Source: an uncultured Acidobacteriota bacterium (GTDB lineage: Bacteria > Acidobacteriota > Thermoanaerobaculia > UBA5066 > DATFVB01). From it: 64,000 nt of DNA. The notes under the pieces were generated by a model. That model was not told the DNA's origin, did no database searches, and worked only from the letters and a program-made list of their open reading frames with translations. The stretch spans positions 544,001 to 608,000 of the forward strand of contig CAWEYG010000003.1 in the NCBI GenBank assembly GCA_963813155.1. Direction: 5' to 3'. The position numbers and the translations under genes were made by a program. This document shows positions 16,804 to 45,466 of the stretch, in pieces. The first letter of the stretch is position 1; each line of letters opens with the position of its first letter.

Positions 16804-16880
16804 TGGCAGGGGTGGAGGGATTCGAACCCCCAACATCCGGTTTTGGAGACCGGCGCTCTACCAATTCGAGCTACACCCCT
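16804..16880 (-). tRNA. tRNA-Trp(CCA)
   Basis: AGGGGTGTAGCTCG...CCGGT-CT-CCA-AA-ACCGG...GGTTCGAATCC...CCA end. Confidence 0.96.
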
Positions 16881-16885
16881 CAAGC

Positions 16886-17038
16886 TCAAACCTTGCCTTC
16901 CTTGTGCGCCGTGTGCTTCCGGCAGAATCGGCAGTACTTGCTCCGCTCCAGCTTCTCGGTGTTGGTCTTCTTGTTCTTCGTCGTCGTGTAGTTCCGCCGC
17001 TTGCAAGCGCTGCACGCGAGAGAGATGATTTCCTGCAT
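16886..17038 (-). CDS. rpmG: 50S ribosomal protein L33 (Zn-binding type)
   Basis: Manual translation [50 protein letters not shown]; below the ORF track size cutoff. Confidence 0.95.
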
Positions 17039-17050
17039 CGTCGTATCCCC

Positions 17051-18244
<1,194 letters not shown>

Positions 18245-18301
18245 CCTCGTCCCTCATCATTTTTCAAATCCCGCCGCGGGGAAATTTCCCGGATCGAGAA
18301 C

Positions 18302-18377
<76 letters not shown>

Positions 18378-18412
18378 AGGAGTACGATCAAAGACCCCCA
18401 GATTCCCAAGTT

Positions 18413-18487
18413 TGGAGCGGGAGACGGGATTCGAACCCGCGACCAACAGCTTGGAAGGCTGTGACTCTACCCCTGAGTTACTCCCGC
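18413..18487 (-). tRNA. tRNA-Gly(TCC)
   Basis: GCGGGAGTAACTCAG...ACAGC-CT-TCC-AA-GCTGT...GGTTCGAATCCC...CCA. Confidence 0.95.
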
Positions 18488-18525
18488 GCTTTCCCCGTAC
18501 TTTCCGCCGCCGCGCCGCCCGGAGA

Positions 18526-18612
18526 TGGTGGGCAGTGGAGGATTCGAACCTCCGTAGCGCGAAGCGCGGCAGATTTACAGTCTGCTGCCATTAACCACTC
18601 GGCCAACTGCCC
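18526..18612 (-). tRNA. tRNA-Tyr(GTA)
   Basis: GGGCAGTTGGCCGAGTGG...GCAGA-CT-GTA-AA-TCTGC, long variable arm, CCA end. Confidence 0.95.
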
Positions 18613-18647
18613 TCGGATTCTCGTCTTCTTCCCCCGCCGGACGCTCG

Positions 18648-18723
18648 TGGAGCCGACGAGAGGAATTGAACCTCCAACCTTCGGTTTACAAAACCGCTGC
18701 TCTGCCGATTGAGCTACGCCGGC
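18648..18723 (-). tRNA. tRNA-Thr(TGT)
   Basis: GCCGGCGTAGCTCAA...CGGT-TT-TGT-AA-ACCG...CCA. Confidence 0.95.
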
Positions 18724-36462: not shown

Positions 36463-38530
36463 TCACATCGCCAGCCCCACGTCGCCTTCGAGCACCGATG
36501 TCTTCAGCCGCGGACGCTCTCCGCCCTTCCAGAGTGCAGCCGTGTGTAAAACCCGATACCGGAGGGGCCCCCCGTCCGGTCTTTCACTGCGCGCGATGGG
36601 CCGCGGGATGCAGACAAACTCGGTGCGCATCTCATCGGCCGACAATTGCACCTTCGCGTAACCGTGTCCTCCCAGATCGACGAACTCGAGGTGCGGAGCC
36701 AGATCCGGGTTGGACAGCGACCGTGCGCGCTTGAGATCGAAGCTCCTGGCATATTCCAGGCTCGAGCGGACGCCGTGCTTGAGCAGCATGTTGTACGTCC
36801 AGTCGGGCTTCGCGCCGTCCGGCCGATCGGCGAGAAACAGCGGGCGCAGCGGATCGGTCTTGGACAAATTGTGCTCGGTGGCTTCCATGGTTCCTGCGCT
36901 CGAGAGCGAGGCGCCGACGAAGCTCAAGCCGACGGGATCGAATTTGCCGGGCGGCAATTGAGAAGTCGCGTAACCGGCCCAGAAGCTGTGGCGGTCTCCC
37001 GAGACGATGGCGAAGCCGGTGATCTTCGCATCCCGGATGAGGTCGTAGATCTCGGCGCGCTCGGTATAGGCCATTGCGTAATCGGGAGGGCTCATGGATG
37101 CATAAGTGTCCTTAGGCCAGGTTTCCTTGGTCAATCCAGGGGGCAGGTTCTGCGGATCGCTTCGCCCATCGAGCGCGCCTTCCGAATTGCCCCAGATCTT
37201 CCACGTGGCGGTCGACTTGCGCAGCTGATCCTTGAACCACGCTTTTTGCGTTGCGCCGAGAATGGTCTGCGGAGGCCTATCCTTCTGCGGGTTTGGGACA
37301 TGCGCATCGCCAAAGCCGACTTCGGCCGGCGGATTGCCGCCGTTGAACGCGCGACCGCCGTCGAGCACCTGCATCAAGGTTTCCGGCGACATGTCGGTGA
37401 ACTCTTCGCCGCCGAGCCTGTTGAGCGAGGGATCGCTAAACGGGTCGGCGCTGCGGTAGCTGTGCTGGTCGGTAATGATCAGATCGAGATGCTTGCCGTA
37501 GCGGAATGTGCGGTAGCCGATCAGGCTGTTGATCGCTGCGAGATTGTTCGGCTCGTCGCCAAGGCCGTTCTCGTCCCACTTCTCGATTGCGACATTCGTC
37601 ACCTGCGGGCGGATCGAAGCTTTCGAACGAGGGTCCGCTGACTTTCTTGCAGCGCGAGGGGAGGTATTCCCACCATGCCTGGTTGGCGGCGACTTTGATG
37701 TTTTGACCCGGTCGAGAGATGCCGCCAGCTTGCTGGATGCTTTGCCAGCCCTGCCACGAGAATTCGTGGTTGTCCCACATGGCGACGAACGGCCAGCGCG
37801 CGCGGGCGTCCTGGAGGTCGGGATCGGCGAGATAGCCTTTGTAAACGGCCCGATAGCCGTCGACCGTCAGCGGGAAATGAAAATGGCCAACCTGGCCCCC
37901 GTCCGGGATGCGCGCGACCTCGTAGATCGTGCGGTCGTAGCGCGTCTTCGTCTCGTCGGGATACTCGACCACCTCGTAGATGAAATCACCCAGGTGCAGA
38001 ACGAAGCCGAGCTGTTGGGCGGCGGGAGCGCGTTCATCTTCGTAAATCATCCGGCGATAGGCGTTGAGCTTGCCCTCGTTGACATCCTGACAGCTCACGA
38101 ATGTGAAGTTCACCGTTCGTGGATCGCCTGGCAGCGGCGCGGTGATCGTGCGGCCGACCCGGCTGCCGTTTCCGTCGGCGTCGGTGAACCGATACCAGTA
38201 AGCGCGCGCCGGCTTGAGTCCGCCAATCAGAACGCGCGCGGTCCAGTCCGCGGCGCTGGAGACCGGCGCCTGCGCGTGCGCAACGACTCGGCGGAAGGCC
38301 TCATCCTCGGCTACCTCGACGGTCAGGAGCTGGCGTGTGTCCTGGGCGAACGGATGCCTCGTCCACAGGATGACGCTGTGCGCATCGGGATCGCCCGAGG
38401 CGACCCCCTGGGGATAGAGATCACGCCGCTCATTCCAGTGGGCACGCGAACCTCGAGCCGGCCCGGCCCATGCGAGCGAAGCACCCATTGCGGCTGCAGA
38501 TTTGAGAAAGGATCGGCGGCTAATCTTCAT
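36463..38530 (-). CDS. phoD: Alkaline phosphatase D family protein (Tat signal) with a +1 frameshift near 37607
   Basis: SRRSFLK twin-Arg motif, GVASGDP, LHLGDFIYE, WDNHE in 37436..38554; VSGDRH in 36463..37602. Confidence 0.85.
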
Positions 38531-38698
38531 CGTCTCACTCCGTCCGGGCGGCAAGTTGCGTCACTCAGGATTCGGACGCAAGCGCCCGCCAAGACAAGTA
38601 CGTACTCTACGCTCGTAAGTTGGGGCGTTGCTGTCAGAATCCTGCGATGATAGATGGTAAGAACGCTACTACCCTAACCCCGTTTCAGACACTCGTGC

Positions 38699-39040
38699 TC
38701 AGGACTGCGGGTCGAACCCGAAGACGCGCAGCTCTTGGTCGCAGCGACAGGCCTTCGCGATGCGCGCGGCCCACGCGACGGCCTCCTCGCGCGAGGGCAG
38801 TTCGAGCACGGTGAAGCCGCCGTCAAGCGGGGGCGCCCATGGGTAGCCGCCCTCGGCGACTGCTCCGTCTGCTGCGACGAGAACGGGCGGCACGCCTTCG
38901 TCGATGCCGCCGCCGAAGACGTAGACGCCGGCGGCTTTCGCCTCGTCGATCACGGCGTGCGCGTCGCGGCCCACCGCCTCCCACTCGCCTTCGGGCACGA
39001 CCATCGCCGCGCTTGGAAAGGAGATCAGGTACTTGGCCAT
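38699..39040 (-). CDS. YciI-family protein; most distal cassette-like gene
   Basis: AGVYVFGGG, GGFTVLELPSREEAVAWA; SD GGAGGAG; begins 46 nt after the GTTAGGC core of attC 39086. Confidence 0.8.
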   Translation of the reverse strand: MAKYLISFPSAAMVVPEGEWEAVGRDAHAVIDEAKAAGVYVFGGGIDEGVPPVLVAADGAVAEGGYPWAPPLDGGFTVLELPSREEAVAWAARIAKACRCDQELRVFGFDPQS

Positions 39041-39085
39041 GGTGCTCCTCCTGGGAATTGATGGCGGTCGTGAAGCCTGTGTGCG

Positions 39086-39145
39086 GCCTAACGACGCGCT
39101 TCAGCGGTGAGCGAACCGACATCACGCTGTATGCCGGTGTTGCCG
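39086..39145 (-). repeat. attC site 1
   Basis: Plus strand GCCTAAC-GACGCG-CTTCAGCG...CGCTGTATG-CCGGT-GTTGCCG. Confidence 0.7.
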
Positions 39146-39603
39146 CGGGATTTCTCGGTCCCGTGTGAGGCCCGACCAGTACGGACGATCTCGTCGCGCT
39201 GGTGCGCCGATCGCACGAAGCCACCCCGACGCGGGCGGAATCGTTGGGGCGTGGGACGAACTCCGAAGCGCCGGGGTGCGACGGATTCGCGAGGAAGGCC
39301 GAACCCTCACGGGCGAGATCCGAACCGGCTTCGCAACTCGCTGAAGAGGCGACGGATGCCCGCGTCTGGTGCGGGATTTCGAAGTTCTCGTGGGCGAGCC
39401 GACGTTGACATCGGCGCGGGCAGTTCGGCCGAGCACTGCCAGCAGCGTTCTGGCGGCGGCATGCATCAGACGATCGGCGAAGGTGTCGTCCCGCGGCGCT
39501 CCGATTCGAGGCCTCGGCCGCGAACAGCCAATCGGCGGCCGATCCTGCTCCTTTCGGGCAAACCTTCGAGCACTGAGATAGCCTTTTCGAGCTTCGTGGT
39601 CAT
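39146..39603 (-). pseudogene. Decayed type II toxin-antitoxin cassette (antitoxin plus RelE/ParE-like toxin)
   Basis: Frame-shifted fragments MTTKLEKAISVLEGLPE, ADWL, ESERRxDDTFA, then KSRT, IRRLFSEL, FLANPSHPG, SARVG, RAIG, DEIV, YWxGPH. Confidence 0.6.
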
Positions 39604-39639
39604 CGGACCTTGATTTTACCACCAGGCCAACCCTTCCGC

Positions 39640-39703
39640 GGCCAACGCCTTGCGCCTCAGCGGCGGAACGAAGCGACGTCCGCTGCACGCCGGCGTTTTA
39701 TGC
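39640..39703 (-). repeat. attC site 2
   Basis: GGCCAAC...CTCAGCGGCGGAACGAAGCGACGTCCGCTGCACGCCGGC-GTT(TT)ATGC. Confidence 0.7.
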
Positions 39704-40092
39704 GTGCGCGTATCCCCTCCGAAGAAGCACGATCACCGCCTGGCACTTCGCGCCGTGTCGCCGAGGCCGCGGGCTAACGCATGTTCGCGCGCTTTCTCAA
39801 CGCCTGCAATCAGATTTGGAACCGGAAAATCGACGTCTCGCGCCGTCTTCGTGAGGTCATAGGCGCGGTCAATCGCGAAGGTGAGGTGTTGTTCGACAGC
39901 TGCTGAGAGAGAGCCGGGCGGCCGTTAAAGGCTGCAAGCGCGGCCTGGCAAGAACCAGCGGCGAGCGCATTCGCGATAAGCCTGCGCGAGTCCTGCAAGG
40001 CCGCCTCACGGCGCTTGCCAAAAGTCATTCCAGCCGCGAAGCCAACCGCGAGAATGGTTGCCGCGAGCACGAAACGGGTAGGTCCGGTTCAA
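39698..40092 (-). pseudogene. Frameshifted cassette gene with an N-terminal membrane anchor
   Basis: ORF 39810..40070 (LAATILAVGFAAGM) continues in another frame (FAIDRAYDLTKTARDVDFPVPNLIAGVEK) toward attC 2. Confidence 0.45.
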
Positions 40093-40097
40093 CGCAC

Positions 40098-40158
40098 TCC
40101 CCACGATTCGGCGTCAGCGGTGGGGCGCAGCGACATCCGCTGCACGCGCATGTTATGC
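40098..40158 (-). repeat. attC site 3
   Basis: TCCCCAC-GATTCGG-CGTCAGCGG...CCGCTGCACG-CGCAT-GTTATGC. Confidence 0.75.
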
Positions 40159-40520
40159 CCCCGCACTCTCACCATTCTCGATTCCCTTCAGGAGTTCCTG
40201 AGCAACGGCTCGGTCGTCGGTTGTCACCTGAATCTCGACCGGGCCGACGAATAGGGTTATAACTCAAGCCCGATTCGCCCCCACGCGAAGAAATCCTGAA
40301 GACCCTCATATTTGGCGAGGAACTGAATTCCGGCGTCGCGAAACACGGACTCGATGACCGGGAGAAGCGCAGCGTTTCCGGTCGTGTACACCGTGACCAG
40401 GTCGGGATGATGACCTTGCTCCTCCTCGGCCTCCGGCGCCCCCGTCACGAGAGGAACATGACACTCCGCGCACTCGGTAAAGCCCGGCCGGTATTCGTCG
40501 CCGCAATTCGGACAAATCAT
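40153..40520 (-). pseudogene. Zn-ribbon plus DUF2007-like cassette gene, frameshifted near 40255-40270
   Basis: MICPNCGDEYRPGFTECAEC...DAGIQF; shifted C-terminus VGPVEIQVTTDDRAVAQELL ends with TAA inside GCATAAC of attC 3. Confidence 0.65.
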
Positions 40521-40565
40521 CTAGCCACGCGTCTTCAGGGACGCCGCTCCGCCGCCGACGAACCG

Positions 40566-40790
40566 ACAGGCTGAATCCCGCAGCGTAAATGAGGAGCTTC
40601 GCCAGCGCTATGAACCGCGCGCCGCCGGGCGCGGAATTCCAGATCCAGGACCTCGTGTCTCCGAGCGCCAGCCACAGTCCCACCGGCGACGACAACCAGA
40701 CGGTGGAACACTGAATATGATTCCGCTAGGGCGACGGTTAGGAAGATAGACAGACACCGAGGGCGTGCAGACGCGAGGACCAGAACACAT
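40566..40790 (-). pseudogene. Small membrane protein cassette remnant
   Basis: Fragment GLWLALGDTRSWIWNSAPGGARFIALAKLLIYAAGFSL; boundaries approximate. Confidence 0.35.
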
Positions 40791-40795
40791 CACCT

Positions 40796-40857
40796 GCCTA
40801 GCACCGGCTTCAGCGGCAAGGCCGCAGGGCGACGTCCGCTGCAAGCCGATGTTCGGG
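40796..40857 (-). repeat. attC site 4
   Basis: GCCTAGC-ACCGG-CTTCAGCGGC...GTCCGCTGCAAG-CCGAT-GTTCGGG. Confidence 0.7.
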
Positions 40858-41789
40858 CCTGCGGATTCTACAGTATTCCTCGATGGGCCGGCTCTCATGC
40901 CAGCCCTTTGCCTCTCCGAGCGCTCTGACGATGGGTCGAACAGCATACGAACGCTGTCCATGGGCGAGATAGACGCGAACGTCGAACCGAAGCGTTCGCA
41001 GGCCAGCGACAAGATCGTGGTACGTCGTGTCGTCGGTCGCGAAGTCGGCGTAGGCAAGCAGATTGAGGTTCATGGACGCCTCGCCGATACGTTCGAGCCT
41101 TCGATTCCACTGCGCCGGCGATCCACCCAGGGCCTTCGATTTTGCCTCTGCGCGCATCCGCGAGCGGTTTCCAGGGCGGCTTCGATTCCGGGCGCTTGCA
41201 CTACGAGGCCCCTCCGTCGCCCAGGCTCCTGGACCTCGGTAAGCTGGAACTCGAACACCTGGTCCGCTGCCTTCAGCCGGAAATCGACGTCTGTGTCGAG
41301 CGCATCGTTGACCACCGGCAAGGCCGCTCGGCGCCGAAGCCCGTGGGCGAAGAAGCAGGCCGGCAGCTTGCCACGCCATAGCTCGCCGAGCGAGCGACGG
41401 CAGCCGGTGCGCCGATGTTCGACGGCCTCGATTCATTCTCGATCCGGGGCGCCAGCTGCGCCGGCGACGAAGACGGCTCCGACGACCTATGGCCCTGCTA
41501 GCCTGGGCGAAAAGAAACGCAGGTCCAACGGCTGCGAGGGCGATCAGCGCAGAATTCAGACGTGACATATCGAGTACCGGTTGAGCATCGAGGGGAAGAG
41601 GCGACCTACGGCAGCCTTTGAAACCAGCGAGGTCGGGACCGCGAGAATCGATGCGACCCCGTAGGACTGCGCAACCTTTCCGCGAAGTATGCCCAAGCGA
41701 CGGGAGTCACGACTCTCTGTCGGACCACAGCATATGCCCCAACCACGATGAGAAAGATCATGCCGCACCCTGGAACGTGGACGGGCCGC
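40858..41789 (-). pseudogene. One or two decayed cassette genes (a membrane protein remnant and a hypothetical protein)
   Basis: Protein-like fragments in several frames: MIFLIVVGAYAVV, NSALIALAAVGPAFLF, DVDFRLKAADQVFEFQLTEVQEPGRRRG, LNLLAYADF. Confidence 0.4.
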
Positions 41790-41848
41790 CAGCAACGATT
41801 CGGCGTCCGCGTTGGTGCGCACGACATCGCTGCAAGGCGATGTTATGC
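41790..41848 (-). repeat. attC site 5
   Basis: CAGCAAC-GATTCGG-CGTCCGCG...CGCTGCAAG-GCGAT-GTTATGC. Confidence 0.7.
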
Positions 41849-42193
41849 CCGCGCGGTCGATGCATGCGATAGCTCCTTGCGGATGCTTTCCGCCAGACCT
41901 GGGAGGTTCTCAGCCAGGTGTTCGCGGCTGAACATGTTCCCCGCGAAGCCGGGGTGATTTGTGGCGCCGAAAATTTCCCGGCCATCGTGGGTGACCACGA
42001 ATTCCATGTCGGAATATTGAATCTCAAGCGATGAACCGCCGGATCGAAATGAGAGAGCGAAGCCGCCCTTGAACGACTCAGGCGCCACTATCTTGCGACC
42101 CGCCATCTTGAACCCGGAAGGGGCCAAAAACGCAAAGGCGCTGACCGTCTGCTCAGCAAGCTGTTCAACAGCGTTCATGATTCTCGCGGTCAT
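41843..42193 (-). CDS. Cassette-encoded hypothetical protein
   Basis: 116 aa ORF filling the space between attC 5 and 6; TAA inside GCATAAC; alternative start at 42178. Confidence 0.7.
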   Translation of the reverse strand: MTARIMNAVEQLAEQTVSAFAFLAPSGFKMAGRKIVAPESFKGGFALSFRSGGSSLEIQYSDMEFVVTHDGREIFGATNHPGFAGNMFSREHLAENLPGLAESIRKELSHASTARA

Positions 42194-42244
42194 AACGATT
42201 CGGCGTTAGCGGTGGTCGACATCCACTGCCCGCGCTTGTTGGGC
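42190..42244 (-). repeat. attC site 6
   Basis: TCATAAC-GATTCGG-CGTTAGCGGTGG...CCACTGCCCG-CGCTT-GTTGGGC. Confidence 0.7.
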
Positions 42245-42260
42245 GATGGTTGACCAACGA

Positions 42261-42482
42261 TCACCATCGACGACCACCGTACCAAAACACTTTCATCTCC
42301 CTCCGGCAATTTGGGCACTCATGGGTTTCTACTAGCCTCGCGTATGGATCGAACGCGAGGCCGGGCTTGGTTGCCTTTGAGGATTCAGGTGGCGAGTCAA
42401 GGTCCGGAAATGGCAACTGGATATTCTCATTGCACCAAGGACACACCACCGACCGCGCATCTTGCGTCTGCGCGGCCATCAT
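42261..42482 (-). CDS. Cassette-encoded small Zn-finger protein
   Basis: 73 aa; CPWC...CPNC; starts 5 nt after the GTTGGGC core. Confidence 0.65.
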   Translation of the reverse strand: MMAAQTQDARSVVCPWCNENIQLPFPDLDSPPESSKATKPGLAFDPYARLVETHECPNCRREMKVFWYGGRRW

Positions 42483-42487
42483 CTGTC

Positions 42488-42549
42488 GCCCAACGATTCG
42501 GCGTCAGCGGTGGAGCAAAGCGACACCGCGCTGCACGCGCGTGTTGGGT
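42488..42549 (-). repeat. attC site 7 (best conserved)
   Basis: Minus strand ACCCAAC-ACGCG-CGT[G]CAGC...GCTGACG-CCGAATC-GTTGGGC: perfect RYYYAAC and GTTRRRY, L'' extra base at position 4. Confidence 0.88.
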
Positions 42550-42577
42550 CGTAGGGCTCGGTCGGTCCTTTGCTTCG

Positions 42578-43078
42578 TCACTGCCACTTTGAGGATTTCG
42601 GTGCGCTCAACAGTTCGTCAAGTAGAGATGCGACCGCACCCTCGATCTGCCCTTCCAGGTTGTCGGCCGGCGCGATTTCAATGATCGTGTGAGCCCAGGA
42701 AACGTCGCCGTGATCAAACTTCGCGGGGTGATGAAAGCTAGCCGCGACTTCGACAACGTATTGCGGTTTGCATACTGGATCCGGAACCTGCCTCCCCCAG
42801 AACTCGAGGAGTAGGGCGTGCCCAGCCCCCTTCCTGGCAATTATGCCGGCCGATCTGAGGCGTTTCGATACTCGGTCCTCGAGTGCGACCTTGAATCGCG
42901 CGGCCCCGGCCAAGTCGAACAAACCCGCACCAGGTGTTGGCACCATCTCGCCCGACCCACCGATAAAGACCTCAACGCTGACTTCGTCGACGTGGTAGAT
43001 CGGGTTTGATGGCCTTGCCGAGGTCGCCACTGCGGGCGTCGTCGCCAAAAGGCCAAAGAGCAGTGAAAGAGTCGTCAC
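42578..43078 (-). CDS. Cassette-encoded hypothetical secreted protein
   Basis: GTG start, signal-peptide-like TTLSLLFGLLATTPAVA; fills the space between attC 7 and 8. Confidence 0.65.
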   Translation of the reverse strand: MTTLSLLFGLLATTPAVATSARPSNPIYHVDEVSVEVFIGGSGEMVPTPGAGLFDLAGAARFKVALEDRVSKRLRSAGIIARKGAGHALLLEFWGRQVPDPVCKPQYVVEVAASFHHPAKFDHGDVSWAHTIIEIAPADNLEGQIEGAVASLLDELLSAPKSSKWQ

Positions 43079-43090
43079 GATGCAGGCACG

Positions 43091-43220
43091 GCCCAACGAC
43101 CCGGCTTCCCGCCTCCGCGTGAAGCTTCGGCGCGGGTGACCAGCGGCAAGGCCGCAGGCCGAAGCCCCGGCCGAGCCGTAGCCTTGGCGAAGGCTGGTCC
43201 GCTGCAAGCCGATGTTCGGT
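43091..43220 (-). repeat. attC site 8, interrupted by two REP-like insertions
   Basis: GCCCAAC-GACCCGG-CTT[33 nt]CAGCGGCAAGGCCGCAGGCCGA[about 33 nt]GGTCCGCTGCAAG-CCGAT-GTTCGGT; nearly identical to attC 4 once the inserts are removed. Confidence 0.8.
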
Positions 43221-43233
43221 GGCGACGCTTTCC

Positions 43234-43473
43234 TCATCTCGCTCGACCTATGATCAAGCCACGTATTCGAAATGCCAGCAACATTGCGAGCATCGGGCCG
43301 ACGAGTAGCAGCCCGGTCATTCCCCAGATCGCAGTATCAGACCCGTAAGGTCCGCAGATTCCGAGCAAGCCAGAGTTTGTTCCTCGACCTACGGCGATCA
43401 CAGCCCACACGTCTGCAACCATCACCAAAAGGAAGACCACGACCGCGATGCTGAGGGCCGCTGCTCTACGCAT
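43234..43473 (-). CDS. Cassette-encoded small membrane protein (2 TM)
   Basis: 79 aa with two hydrophobic stretches, between attC 8 and 9. Confidence 0.65.
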   Translation of the reverse strand: MRRAAALSIAVVVFLLVMVADVWAVIAVGRGTNSGLLGICGPYGSDTAIWGMTGLLLVGPMLAMLLAFRIRGLIIGRAR

Positions 43474-43489
43474 AGACGCTGCTCACGCC

Positions 43490-43565
43490 CCGGAACGACC
43501 CGGCTTCAGCGGCGGCGTGAGCCGCGGAGCGGCGAATCGACGTCCGCTGGAAGCCGATGTTAGCC
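43490..43565 (-). repeat. attC site 9
   Basis: CCGGAAC-GACCCGG-CTTCAGCGGC...GTCCGCTGGAAG-CCGAT-GTTAGCC. Confidence 0.82.
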
Positions 43566-43835
43566 GGCATGTGCCGACACCTTCCGTCTAACCCATCCAG
43601 CCAATCGGAACATCGCCCACTCGACCCCGATCGCCGCCGCGAGGAGGAGCGTGAGTGGTGCGAGGTATTGGACTACGAAGTTGAGAGCCTGGAAGCCGGA
43701 ACCGCGGGTGTAGAGCTCCGGTGAATCAGCCGCAATCTTGACCAGATGCCGCCACAAGCCGAAACAGAGGAACGCCCAAGCGACCACGGTAACCGTGACG
43801 ACAGACGCTAAGGCGAGCCGCGTCCGACGCATCAT
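43560..43835 (-). CDS. Cassette-encoded small membrane protein (2 TM)
   Basis: MMRRTRLALASVVTVTVVAWAF...; TAA inside GGCTAAC of attC 9; starts 7 nt after the attC 10 core. Confidence 0.7.
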   Translation of the reverse strand: MMRRTRLALASVVTVTVVAWAFLCFGLWRHLVKIAADSPELYTRGSGFQALNFVVQYLAPLTLLLAAAIGVEWAMFRLAGWVRRKVSAHAG

Positions 43836-43842
43836 TTCAGCC

Positions 43843-43910
43843 GCCCAACGACCGGAGTTCAGCGGCGGCGAGCCAGCGGCTCGACATCCCACTGCAACGA
43901 GAAGTCAAGT
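43843..43910 (-). repeat. attC site 10
   Basis: GCCCAAC-GACCGGA-GTTCAGCGG...CCACTGCAAC-GAGAA-GTCAAGT (other core degenerate). Confidence 0.7.
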
Positions 43911-43918
43911 GCGTGGCG

Positions 43919-44370
43919 CTAGGCGATCGTAGCCAACTCATCAAGACCCCTCTGCGCACACGAGCGAACGAATTCGTTCGGATGATCAACGAGTTCCTGC
44001 AGCCTGAGCTCGATTTCGCGAGCGCCTAAATGATCCGCCCGTCTCTTTACAGCCGCATTCCCTAAAGACGCCGCGATTAGAGCTAGACAAGGGTCGGCGG
44101 GGATCCCTTCCCTCCGGGAAATCTCGAGAAGAATCTGAGGCTGCAGCTCGCGCGGAGAGCTGGAGGACCAAGGCAAGAGCCTCAAGGACGTCGCGCGCAT
44201 CAGCTTCGGACTCGCCGCGGCGAAATATCATGGTGTCCAAAACGGCTTCCGCACCTGCCGAGCCGGCATCGGCAATGACCCGGCGCCGAGTCTTGATCGG
44301 CCAGTGCAGACGGTCGTGGGTACGCCGCAATTGCCCCTGGATCAGCAGGGCCACGTGGCGAGTTCATCAT
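43919..44370 (-). pseudogene. First cassette gene, alpha-helical/HEAT-like, frameshifted
   Basis: Overlapping ORFs 43986..44354 and 43919..44200 (LQELVDHPNEFVRSCAQRGL); stop lies 8 nt before attC 10. Confidence 0.45.
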
Positions 44371-44572
44371 GCTTCTCGATTCTACGCCGTCCTTACGCCT
44401 GCGAATATTCCCCCCTTTGCCCCTTCCTATCGCGGGGACCGGGAAACGGGGACACCGGCAGTTTCTCGAATTGTGATTTTTCGAATGCTCGATTTCGGAC
44501 CCGACTACCCCTCCTTGCAACGCGGGCAGGGGTGGGGTCGGGCCCGGAGGCCCCTCGTCTTATACTCGCCCT

Positions 44573-45466
44573 GTGAGCAGTCTCCCCGTCCTCCCCGCGC
44601 GCCCGACGCGGCTCGAGCGCCCCGAGTGGCTGAAGGTCCGGCTCTCGGCGAGCGGAGAGTTCGACGAGGTCAACTCCATGATGCGGCGGCTGAATCTCGT
44701 CACGGTCTGCGAGGAAGCCCGCTGCCCGAACATCCACGAGTGCTGGGCGCGGGAGCGCACCGCCACGTTCATGCTGCTCGGCGACGTCTGCACGCGCCAC
44801 TGCGGCTTCTGCGCCGTCGGCAAGGGAACGCCCGGCTCCGTCGACCCCGACGAGCCGCGCCGCGTCGGCGAGGCGGTCGCGGAGCTCGGCCTGAAGCACG
44901 CGGTCGTGACCTCCGTGAACCGCGACGACCTGCCCGACGGCGGAGCCGAGCAGTTCGCCGCGACGATCCGCGAGATCCGGCGGCAGAGCCCCGGGTGCGC
45001 CGTCGAGGTGCTGATCCCCGATTTCTGCGGCAACTGGGACGCCCTTCAGGTCGTGCTCGACGAGCAGCCGGAAGTCCTGAATCACAACACGGAGACGGTC
45101 CCCCGCCTCTATCGCCGCGTTCGTCCCGATGCCATTTACGAGCGCTCGCTCGAGCTGATCGCGCGGGCGGACGAATTCCGGCGGTCGGGAGCGAAGCTCC
45201 GGACGAAGTCCGGGCTCATGGCGGGCCTTGGCGAGACTTCCGAGGAGATTCTCTCGACGCTCGCGGACCTGCGGTCGCACGGGTGCGACATCGCGACCGT
45301 CGGACAGTACCTGCAGCCTTACGAGAAGCGGCTGCCGGTCGAGAAGTACTACACGCCCGGGGAATTCGCGGAGATCAAGGCCCGCGCGCAATCGCTCGGC
45401 TTTTCTCATGTCGAGTCCGGGCCGCTCGTTCGGTCGTCCTATCATGCCCGACACGCCGCTCTCTGA
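44573..45466 (+). CDS. lipA: Lipoyl synthase
   Basis: [27 protein letters not shown]. Confidence 0.97.

Follow-up and report, generated by a model that had tools for sequence, protein, structure and literature searches.

A probable integrase-less integron cassette array within a multi-array chromosomal integron system of a soil Acidobacteriota bacterium

A 64-kb stretch of DNA from a soil Thermoanaerobaculia-like Acidobacteriota bacterium (contig C3, positions 544001-608000; hereafter the window, whose own numbering is used wherever no contig is given) holds a run of ten palindromic sites upstream of the lipoyl synthase gene lipA. A prior reading of the letters alone, referred to here as the sequence-only reading, took these sites for an integron cassette array without an integrase. 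The question that this locus raises is whether the sites are attC sites at all and, if they are, what an array that lacks its own integrase is doing there and where it came from. The genome analysed (G000) is a 3.81-Mb assembly of 23 contigs that is 90.8% complete and has 3.76% contamination. From the comparisons described here we conclude, with a probability of about 85%, that window positions 39086-43910 constitute a true array of integron cassettes that has neither an integrase nor an attI site of its own, i.e. an attC-site cluster without an integron-integrase (CALIN), which belongs to a multi-array chromosomal integron system. Its content is ten attC sites and nine or ten small promoter-less cassettes on the minus strand.

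All ten sites named by the sequence-only reading are present, and their start-to-start distances of 298-994 nt agree with the spacing of 0.3-1 kb that it gave. Each has an RYYYAAC-like start and a GTTRRRY-like end on the plus strand, and we number them s1 to s10 from left to right, such that s10 is the first and s1 the last site in cassette (minus-strand) order. Specifically, with their scores under a covariance model termed R1, the sites are s1 at 39086-39145 (GCCTAAC...GTTGCCG, 59.2 bits), s2 at 39640-39701 (GGCCAAC...GTTTTAT, 66.2 bits), s3 at 40098-40158 (TCCCCAC...GTTATGC, 73.9 bits), s4 at 40796-40857 (GCCTAGC...GTTCGGG, 55.1 bits), s5 at 41790-41848 (CAGCAAC...GTTATGC, 55.6 bits), s6 at 42190-42244 (TCATAAC...GTTGGGC, 56 bits), s7 at 42488-42549 (GCCCAAC...GTTGGGT, 76.4 bits), which is the best kept and folds as a full hairpin, s8 at 43091-43220 (46.6 bits), which is a long form of 130 nt with extra internal sequence, s9 at 43490-43565 (CCGGAAC...GTTAGCC, 68.5 bits) and s10 at 43843-43910 (GCCCAAC...GTCAAGT, 54.8 bits). 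Measured from box to box the sites are 55-130 nt long, and the shortest, s6, is 2 nt under the 57-141 bp given for attC sites in PMC5027507. Their consensus reads RYYYAAC-GAYYC-GGCKT-CAGCGG-variable-GACRT-CCGCTG-C-AMGCC-GAT-GTTRRRY.

The R1 model was trained on the ten window sites only, with a 20-pair structure drawn on their alignment, so its scan of the window with filters off, which gives the ten sites 46.6-76.4 bits and the best other match 15.6 bits, is circular. A non-circular test is provided by the rest of the genome, where R1 has 40 matches at E<=1, of which 30 lie beyond the training set and the best (81.2 bits) outscores every training site. A genome-wide dispersed repeat would have behaved differently: 38 of the 40 matches fall into five arrays, the family is tied to an integron integrase gene (intI), and the two single matches outside the clusters are weak (23.3 and 20.5 bits). 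The clusters comprise a main array of 16 sites (C3:296703-303964), the window array of 10 sites, a third array of 7 sites (C3:183928-187355), a fourth of 3 sites (C3:142078-145252) and a fifth of 2 sites (C2:497429-498195). As far as the R1 matches go, the same attC family is common to all arrays of this genome and is not private to the window array. The sequence-only reading had given the system an attC family of its own; R1 matches occur also in 35 genomes out of the 41 of the order (33 of 39 if the unpublished G002 and G008 are set aside), one genome having as many as 88 sites.

The first site of the 16-site array lies 586 nt past the end of an integron-integrase match. This gene gives TIGR02249 matches in two frames, C3:295169-295744 (237.7 bits) and C3:295725-296117 (209.8 bits), which singly fall below the 265-bit cut-off of that family and together exceed it; the two pieces carry Phage_int_SAM_4 and Phage_integrase domains and align to residues 8-192 and 196-320 of the Vibrio cholerae integrase VchIntIA (PDB 2A3V). 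A search of the whole genome with PF00589 and TIGR02249 finds matches at C6:93.8k, C2:645.7k and C3:295.2-296.1k only, i.e. three tyrosine recombinase genes, of which intI (C3:295169-296117) is the sole integron integrase gene. None of these matches lies within the 64-kb window, as the sequence-only reading had stated, and the nearest intI is 287 kb upstream of the window array on the same contig. Because the window array is a cluster of attC-type sites without intI within 64 kb, it fits the definition of a CALIN, and having neither intI nor attI it is not a complete integron.

The locus at C3:295169-303964, in contrast to the window array, has intI, attI and a cassette array and looks like a complete integron, whose order is intI on the plus strand, a spacer of ~190 nt after its stop, an attI junction and the 16 attC sites. 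The junction reads GAATACATG^TTCGCCC (^ marks the junction point), with the G at C3:296310, and the bases after it exactly complement the R'' box of the first attC site. A similar layout is seen in relatives: intI, attI and cassettes are co-directional in G000, in its sister genome G001 (a second species of the same genus), in both integrons of G004 and in G006, which belongs to another genus. In these four genomes the attI junction falls ~115-290 nt past the intI stop and has the consensus CGCC(T/G)AAT(T)ACATG^TT, preceded by CCGCCTAA-like repeats. Integrons of Treponema have been described as atypical in orientation, their intI being read in the direction of attI and the cassettes (PMC3607928), and the co-directional order recalls, as regards gene orientation, those of the Treponema denticola type; this is a trait of the main integron and not of the window array, which has no intI or attI. 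The main-array cassettes mostly contain a single open reading frame (ORF) of 88-188 aa, and several of these encode predicted membrane proteins or a TonB_C domain.

The structure of the sites was compared between the window and the main arrays. In the ten-site alignment 79.2% of the pair cells are paired, versus 25-48% after a shift of the 3' partners by 1-3 columns, and the AAC and GTT cores are kept in 8 and 9 of the 10 sites, respectively. The main arrays of G000, G001 and G006 supply 45 sites outside the training set, and these were aligned to R1 and hence fitted to the model. Of their cells 87.3% pair, versus 30-44% when shifted; AAC is present in all 45 sites, and each column of GTT is kept in 43-45 of them. 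Two pairs covary among these 45 sites (GC 25/UA 16 and CG 25/UA 19), and these states may reflect just two site sub-families. Across the arrays there are indeed two attC sub-types, GGCGT...GGTGG..AGCGACATCC...CACGC and GGCTT...GGCAAGGCCGCAGGCCGAAGTCC...CAAGCC, which explain both covarying pairs. On the arm opposite AAC the main-array sites have two extra unpaired bases, a T in 43 of 45 and a C in 39 of 45 (G in the other 6), that lie exactly 6 bp apart with the 3' arm CCGCTG as the stem between them; of the central spacer, 5 nt fall on the AAC arm and 3 nt on its partner.

This anatomy matches in most respects that of canonical attC sites such as attCaadA7 and the VCR sites, for which Nivina et al. 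(2016, PMC5027507) describe a bottom strand with AAC in R', extrahelical bases opposite the AAC arm, a 6-bp stem from the first to the last of these, a conserved distal T, a proximal extra base that is usually G, and a length that varies with the terminal structure. The Acidobacteriota sites share the R' and R'' boxes with AAC and GTT, the paired L boxes, the extrahelical bases opposite AAC with 6 bp between them, the conserved distal T and the length set by a variable terminal structure. They differ in that the extra base proximal to L'' is C, and G in 6 of 45 sites only, rather than the usual G, and in having an unequal central spacer, with 5 nt on one arm against 3 nt on its partner, where canonical sites have 5-6 on each. 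Judged by cores, L boxes, extra bases and length, the ten window sites thus have the structure expected of attC sites. Because the geometry matches the bottom-strand definition in PMC5027507, the model strand is the bottom strand, which in the window is the plus strand, and since the recombinogenic strand is the plus strand the cassettes are read on the minus strand. The ORFs do run opposite to the model strand in the window array and in the main array alike, the main-array ORFs being on the plus strand. Fold energy alone does not identify the sites, because most of the ten, folded as single-strand DNA, do not stand out from shuffled sequence (z of +0.05 to -1.7 in nine of ten, and -3.24 for s9). 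We also observed that the long site s8 and a second long site of G000 (C2:498078-498195) share an extra internal segment (GAAGCTTCGGCGCGGG..ACCAGCGGCAA), which hints at a sub-family of long attC sites or at a partial site nested within them.

The intervals between the window sites hold nine cassettes on the minus strand (39147-43842). Their ORFs, all on this strand, are of 45 aa (39466-39603), 86 aa (39810-40070), 87 aa (40257-40520), 116 aa (41843-42193), 73 aa (42261-42482), 172 aa (42578-43096), 79 aa (43234-43473) and 91 aa (43560-43835). The proposal that each interval contains short minus-strand genes holds for eight of the nine, where an ORF of at least 73 aa lies inside the cassette limits, and fails for the s1-s2 interval, where ORFs of 45-51 aa only are present; the 994-nt s4-s5 interval has no convincing ORF. 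Five of the ORFs (those of 116, 73, 172, 79 and 91 aa) have their start within 0-17 nt of the AAC box (at 42193, 42482, 43096, 43473 and 43835, respectively), in agreement with the starts near the core that had been noted, and for the 116-aa ORF the ATG is part of the TCATAAC box of s6. Three TAA triplets in the core had been taken for stops. Two of these do end cassette ORFs, at 41843 (116 aa, inside the GTTATGC box of s5) and 43560 (91 aa, inside the GTTAGCC box of s9), whereas the TAA at 40153 exists and no ORF of at least 30 aa ends there. Pfam and NCBIfam scans and protein-atlas look-ups of the cassette ORFs gave nothing that reaches a curated cut-off, the signals being weak zinc-ribbon matches for the 87-aa and 73-aa ORFs, a weak YCII match and, from the look-ups, 'hypothetical protein' clusters. 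Chromosomal cassettes typically belong to no known family. A promoter and terminator scan of 38600-44700 gave the same counts as shuffled sequence.

Integron cassettes also leave a signature in the order of their sites. In a circularised cassette the RYYY of the restored R' box derives from the neighbouring site, and because of this circular intermediate the RYYY of each site in an array is expected to complement the RRRY of the preceding site and not that of its own site. The main array has this signature in nearly perfect form, with neighbour complementarity averaging 3.67 of 4, as compared to 2.56 within the same site and 2.36 for other pairs, and none of 20000 permutations reaches so high a value.

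We propose a working model for the window array. IntI supplied in trans would fold the plus strand of two attC sites into hairpins and cut them at AA^C, such that cassettes would be excised as circles, and these circles could re-enter at the attI site of the main integron. The window array would then act as a silent cassette store, which would gain no cassettes at its head because it has no attI. Of the two fates that the sequence-only reading had offered for the integrase, action in trans or loss, the gene 287 kb upstream makes the first a live option, with the reservation that this gene is frameshifted in the assembly. What the data show is the structure of the sites, their clustering, their link to intI, the orientation of the cassettes and the partial decay of the array; the trans-mobilisation and the origin of the array are inferences.

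Metagenome data cover the window in part, and no RNA run was listed among those that contain it. One soil-metagenome DNA run contains 0.34 of the sampled window words, and two other runs of the same study contain next to none; the first run may be the source sample and hence not independent, and it was available as contigs only, at a depth of 6-9. Its contigs cover 39270-40030, 41794-42283 and 43273-44276, in the same order as in the window. A 942-nt contig (depth 6.2, 90% likeness) matches the window only from 41794 rightwards while its first 444 nt differ, and this position is 2 nt from the cassette boundary predicted at s5 (between 41795 and 41796). This gives a weak hint that another strain has a different neighbouring cassette at that site. 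An apparent joint from 40147 to 41794 was rejected as a repeat artefact, as its 45-nt side falls on the attC repeat.

Comparison with relatives bears on how the array came to lie where it does. The sister genome is collinear with G000 on either side of the window array (C3:564108-688662 corresponds to C20:103871-219817), and between the shared flanks G001 has ~2.2 kb with two attC sites where G000 has ~8.5 kb. The insert of G000 consists, in order, of a 128-aa ORF, a PhoD-like phosphatase gene (36466-38554, minus strand, split by a 1-nt insertion at ~37602), a gene for a 113-aa YCII-like protein just beyond s1 (38699-39040, minus strand), the ten sites and a 490-nt head segment. This head segment (43914-44400, minus strand) contains two overlapping ORFs in different frames (93 and 56 aa), has no attI-like motif and adjoins the upstream region of lipA (44573-45466, plus strand), the conserved right flank. 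The cassettes that G001 has at the lipA position are entirely different from those of the window, and the array there is headed by an attI-type junction, ACGCCTAATTACATG^TTGGGCG, that is complementary to the R'' box of its first attC site.

The other end of the insert resembles the distal end of main integrons. In G001 the main integron (intI at C10:19272-20219, array at C10:20817-32198) is followed, after its last attC site, by a PhoD gene (C10:33271-35400) that is 92% identical to the window copy, and the s1-s2 cassette of the window (39101-39697) is 75% identical to the last main-array cassette of G001 (C10:32140-32754). In G006 both genes lie inside the main array (C2:56182-58921), where the YCII-like gene is 96% and PhoD 84% identical to the window copies, and in G003 and G005 the YCII-like gene is a cassette between attC sites. 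The 96% identity of the YCII-like gene between G000 and a genome of another genus stands beside 72-84% for core genes between these genomes, and it suggests recent cassette exchange or else strong conservation.

The whole integron occupies different backbone positions in G000 and G001, each position being 'empty' in the other genome (G000 C3:294801-304347 versus G001 C10:155041-156857, and G001 C10:18812-36557 versus G000 C3:433614-434671), and the two intI genes have 68.5% nucleotide identity, as compared to 85-92% for the backbone. Two more integrase-less arrays of G000 are headed by attI x attC junctions, at C3:141653-141668 and C2:498635-498649, and G001 has integrase-less arrays or empty sites with an attI-type start at C20:~121872, C20:6896-7095 and C10:288702-288757; at these attI-headed loci, of which the lipA array of G001 is one, the heads follow the attI consensus given above and the junction bases complement the R'' box of the first attC site. 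Loose-regex and fuzzy attI searches of the genome were too permissive, and from them only the match at C2:498635 was used, after being checked by junction complementarity. The head at C3:141.6k is 83% identical over 135 nt to the spacer between the intI stop and attI of the G001 main integron. A simple inversion between main and window arrays was considered as well and rejected, given the collinearity with G001 to the left and right of the window array.

Several of our results weigh against a genuine CALIN that is still within reach of an integrase. A search of the window allowing up to 3 mismatches and BLAST with seven attI heads found no attI-like motif, and an Rfam scan of the window at gathering thresholds returned five tRNAs only and no attC family. 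Neighbour complementarity in the window array is 2.33 of 4 versus 2.02 for other pairs, which is not significant (permutation p = 0.11), with junction values of 2, 0, 3, 1, 3, 4, 4, 2 and 2 that reach at least 3 in four of nine cases. The AAC core is lost in s3 (CAC) and s4 (AGC) and the GTT core in s10 (GTC). The array is therefore partly decayed. No clean attC x attC excision joint occurs among the metagenome contigs over the parts of the array that they cover at a depth of 6-9. The origin proposed below rests on two or three relatives and needs several rearrangements. Finally, intI of G000 has one extra base in a GGGGGG run (~C3:295738) relative to G001, the frame being intact in all close relatives, and this frameshift, if real, would leave no integrase available. 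This frameshift, the lost cores and the complementarity that falls short of significance would fit a dead relic, an array no longer recombined whose sites are drifting and whose sole intI is a true pseudogene, as would the several cassettes without a convincing ORF, the frameshift in the PhoD gene beside the array and the still lower scores of the arrays at C3:184-187k and C3:142-145k. The extra base may, however, be an assembly error. It falls in a homopolymer of six G, other genes are split too (both PhoD copies and probably purC), frame switches between G000 and G001 are frequent (28 and 34 per ~120 kb, in both directions, such that the faulty assembly cannot be assigned), and the metagenome contigs differ from the window mainly by single-base insertions and deletions, at 39297-39550. 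An assembly error is thus as plausible as a real frameshift. In addition, the near-perfect cassette signature of the main array speaks for IntI having been active recently, both cores are intact in s5 to s9, which look competent from their sequence, and one contig, weak as this hint from a single contig of depth 6.2 is, departs from the window within 2 nt of the s5 boundary. On balance we regard a dead relic as somewhat unlikely. An unrelated palindromic intergenic repeat (REP/BIME-like or MITE-like), or an assembly artefact, would account for the mostly unremarkable single-site fold energies, but not for the clustering of 38 of 40 matches with the largest cluster abutting intI, nor for the geometry of the extrahelical bases, the AAC and GTT cores and the neighbour-site complementarity, which are specific to integron cassettes. 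The collinear flanks and the metagenome contigs that cover parts of the array in the same order speak against an artefact, and we consider either explanation extremely improbable.

As to origin, Cury et al. (2016, PMC4889954) list rearrangement, loss of intI and insertion at secondary sites among the ways in which CALINs may arise. The window array is most likely a fragment, specifically the tail, of a dismembered integron, which corresponds to the first or second of these routes. We favor this origin because the distal end of the array (the last cassette, YCII and PhoD) matches the distal end of the main integrons of relatives, and because G001 has an attI-headed array of two attC sites at the same locus. 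The array could instead have been built in place, by repeated off-target insertions of cassettes at an attG-type site upstream of lipA by IntI acting in trans, with no integron fragment involved. Experiments have shown cassette insertion outside att sites, and small CALINs have been proposed to arise in this way (bioRxiv 10.1101/2022.09.11.507474); the entirely different cassettes at the same lipA position in the sister genome would also fit building in place. However, the head of that sister array is a bona fide attI-type junction rather than a random genomic site, and building in place would leave unexplained why a block of PhoD, YCII and last cassette sits at the far end, as at the main-array ends of G001 and G006, so we judge it quite unlikely. 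The fragment origin can be carried further, to an integron distributed over the genome, with a single integrase acting on several platforms that lack one. On this reading a second integron would have lost its own intI and come apart, with the window array as its detached tail and its attI head now 440 kb away (C3:141.6k), and recombinational contact would be kept through the IntI of a different integron lineage, whose gene is 68% identical in nucleotides to intI of the sister species where the backbone is at 85-92%. This extension is speculative and, as we see it, rather doubtful; if it is true, cassettes would pass from one integron to another among scattered arrays, in an order with near-universal integrons.

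Integrons are indeed widespread in this lineage. Of 41 genomes in the order, 33 have an IntI match above cut-off (31 of 39 once the two unpublished ones are set aside), and the closest IntI relatives, going by record title, come from metagenome-assembled genomes of Thermoanaerobaculia and other Acidobacteriota, with 58-73% identity over 190 aa. The sequence-only reading had called this a lineage in which integrons are little studied. We found no dedicated description of Thermoanaerobaculia or Acidobacteriota integrons in the literature consulted, where supplementary taxon tables (those of PMC4889954 and of the IntegronFinder 2 paper) may list Acidobacteria, but the phylum is already among those listed with integrons in a review (PMC8618304).

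Among known systems, the CALINs treated by Cury et al. (2016, PMC4889954) resemble the window array in having cassettes of unknown function and a complete integron on the same replicon; half of them are given as lying in replicons that encode IntI. With ten sites the window array is above the average quoted there (about 5-6). In its case the distal flank has a counterpart where the main arrays of relatives end, a match that indicates fragmentation for this array. The sedentary chromosomal integrons of Vibrio and Xanthomonas are alike in being chromosomal and near-universal in their clade, with homogeneous lineage-specific attC sites and mostly ORFan cassettes. In contrast to these, the arrays of G000 are smaller and split over five loci (16 + 10 + 7 + 3 + 2 sites), and the whole integron is found at different chromosomal positions in two species of one genus. 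The locus is thus a known kind of element that involves no new mechanism and leaves the concept of integrons or CALINs unchanged. Its value is that of a well-resolved integrase-less array whose origin can be traced by synteny, and it provides an attC model and an attI consensus, together with loci at which the fragmentation and movement of chromosomal integrons can be studied, as can the question of whether scattered arrays still form a common cassette pool.

Some further observations concern the surroundings of the arrays. PhoD adjoins attC arrays in every genome examined except G004. G000 has a second PhoD paralogue (C3:317671-319883) that is 84.5% identical to the window copy, both copies being split into several frames, and it is located where G001 has a small attC array (C10:140546-141162). 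The 15554-nt contig C9 contains a second copy (C9:371-12715, 92-95% identical) of C3:304345-317668, the segment from the main-array end to this second PhoD, and continues beyond 12708 into a ~200-nt repeat that is also present on C2, C7, C8 and C13; C9 probably represents a second strain in the bin. Within the window, a 427-aa ORF at 33721-35001 matches SAICAR synthetase over residues 247-359 only (profile positions 3-101 of 233) and is probably another frameshifted or mis-framed gene. The five tRNA genes form a cluster on the minus strand at 16807-18723 (RF00005, 62-68 bits).

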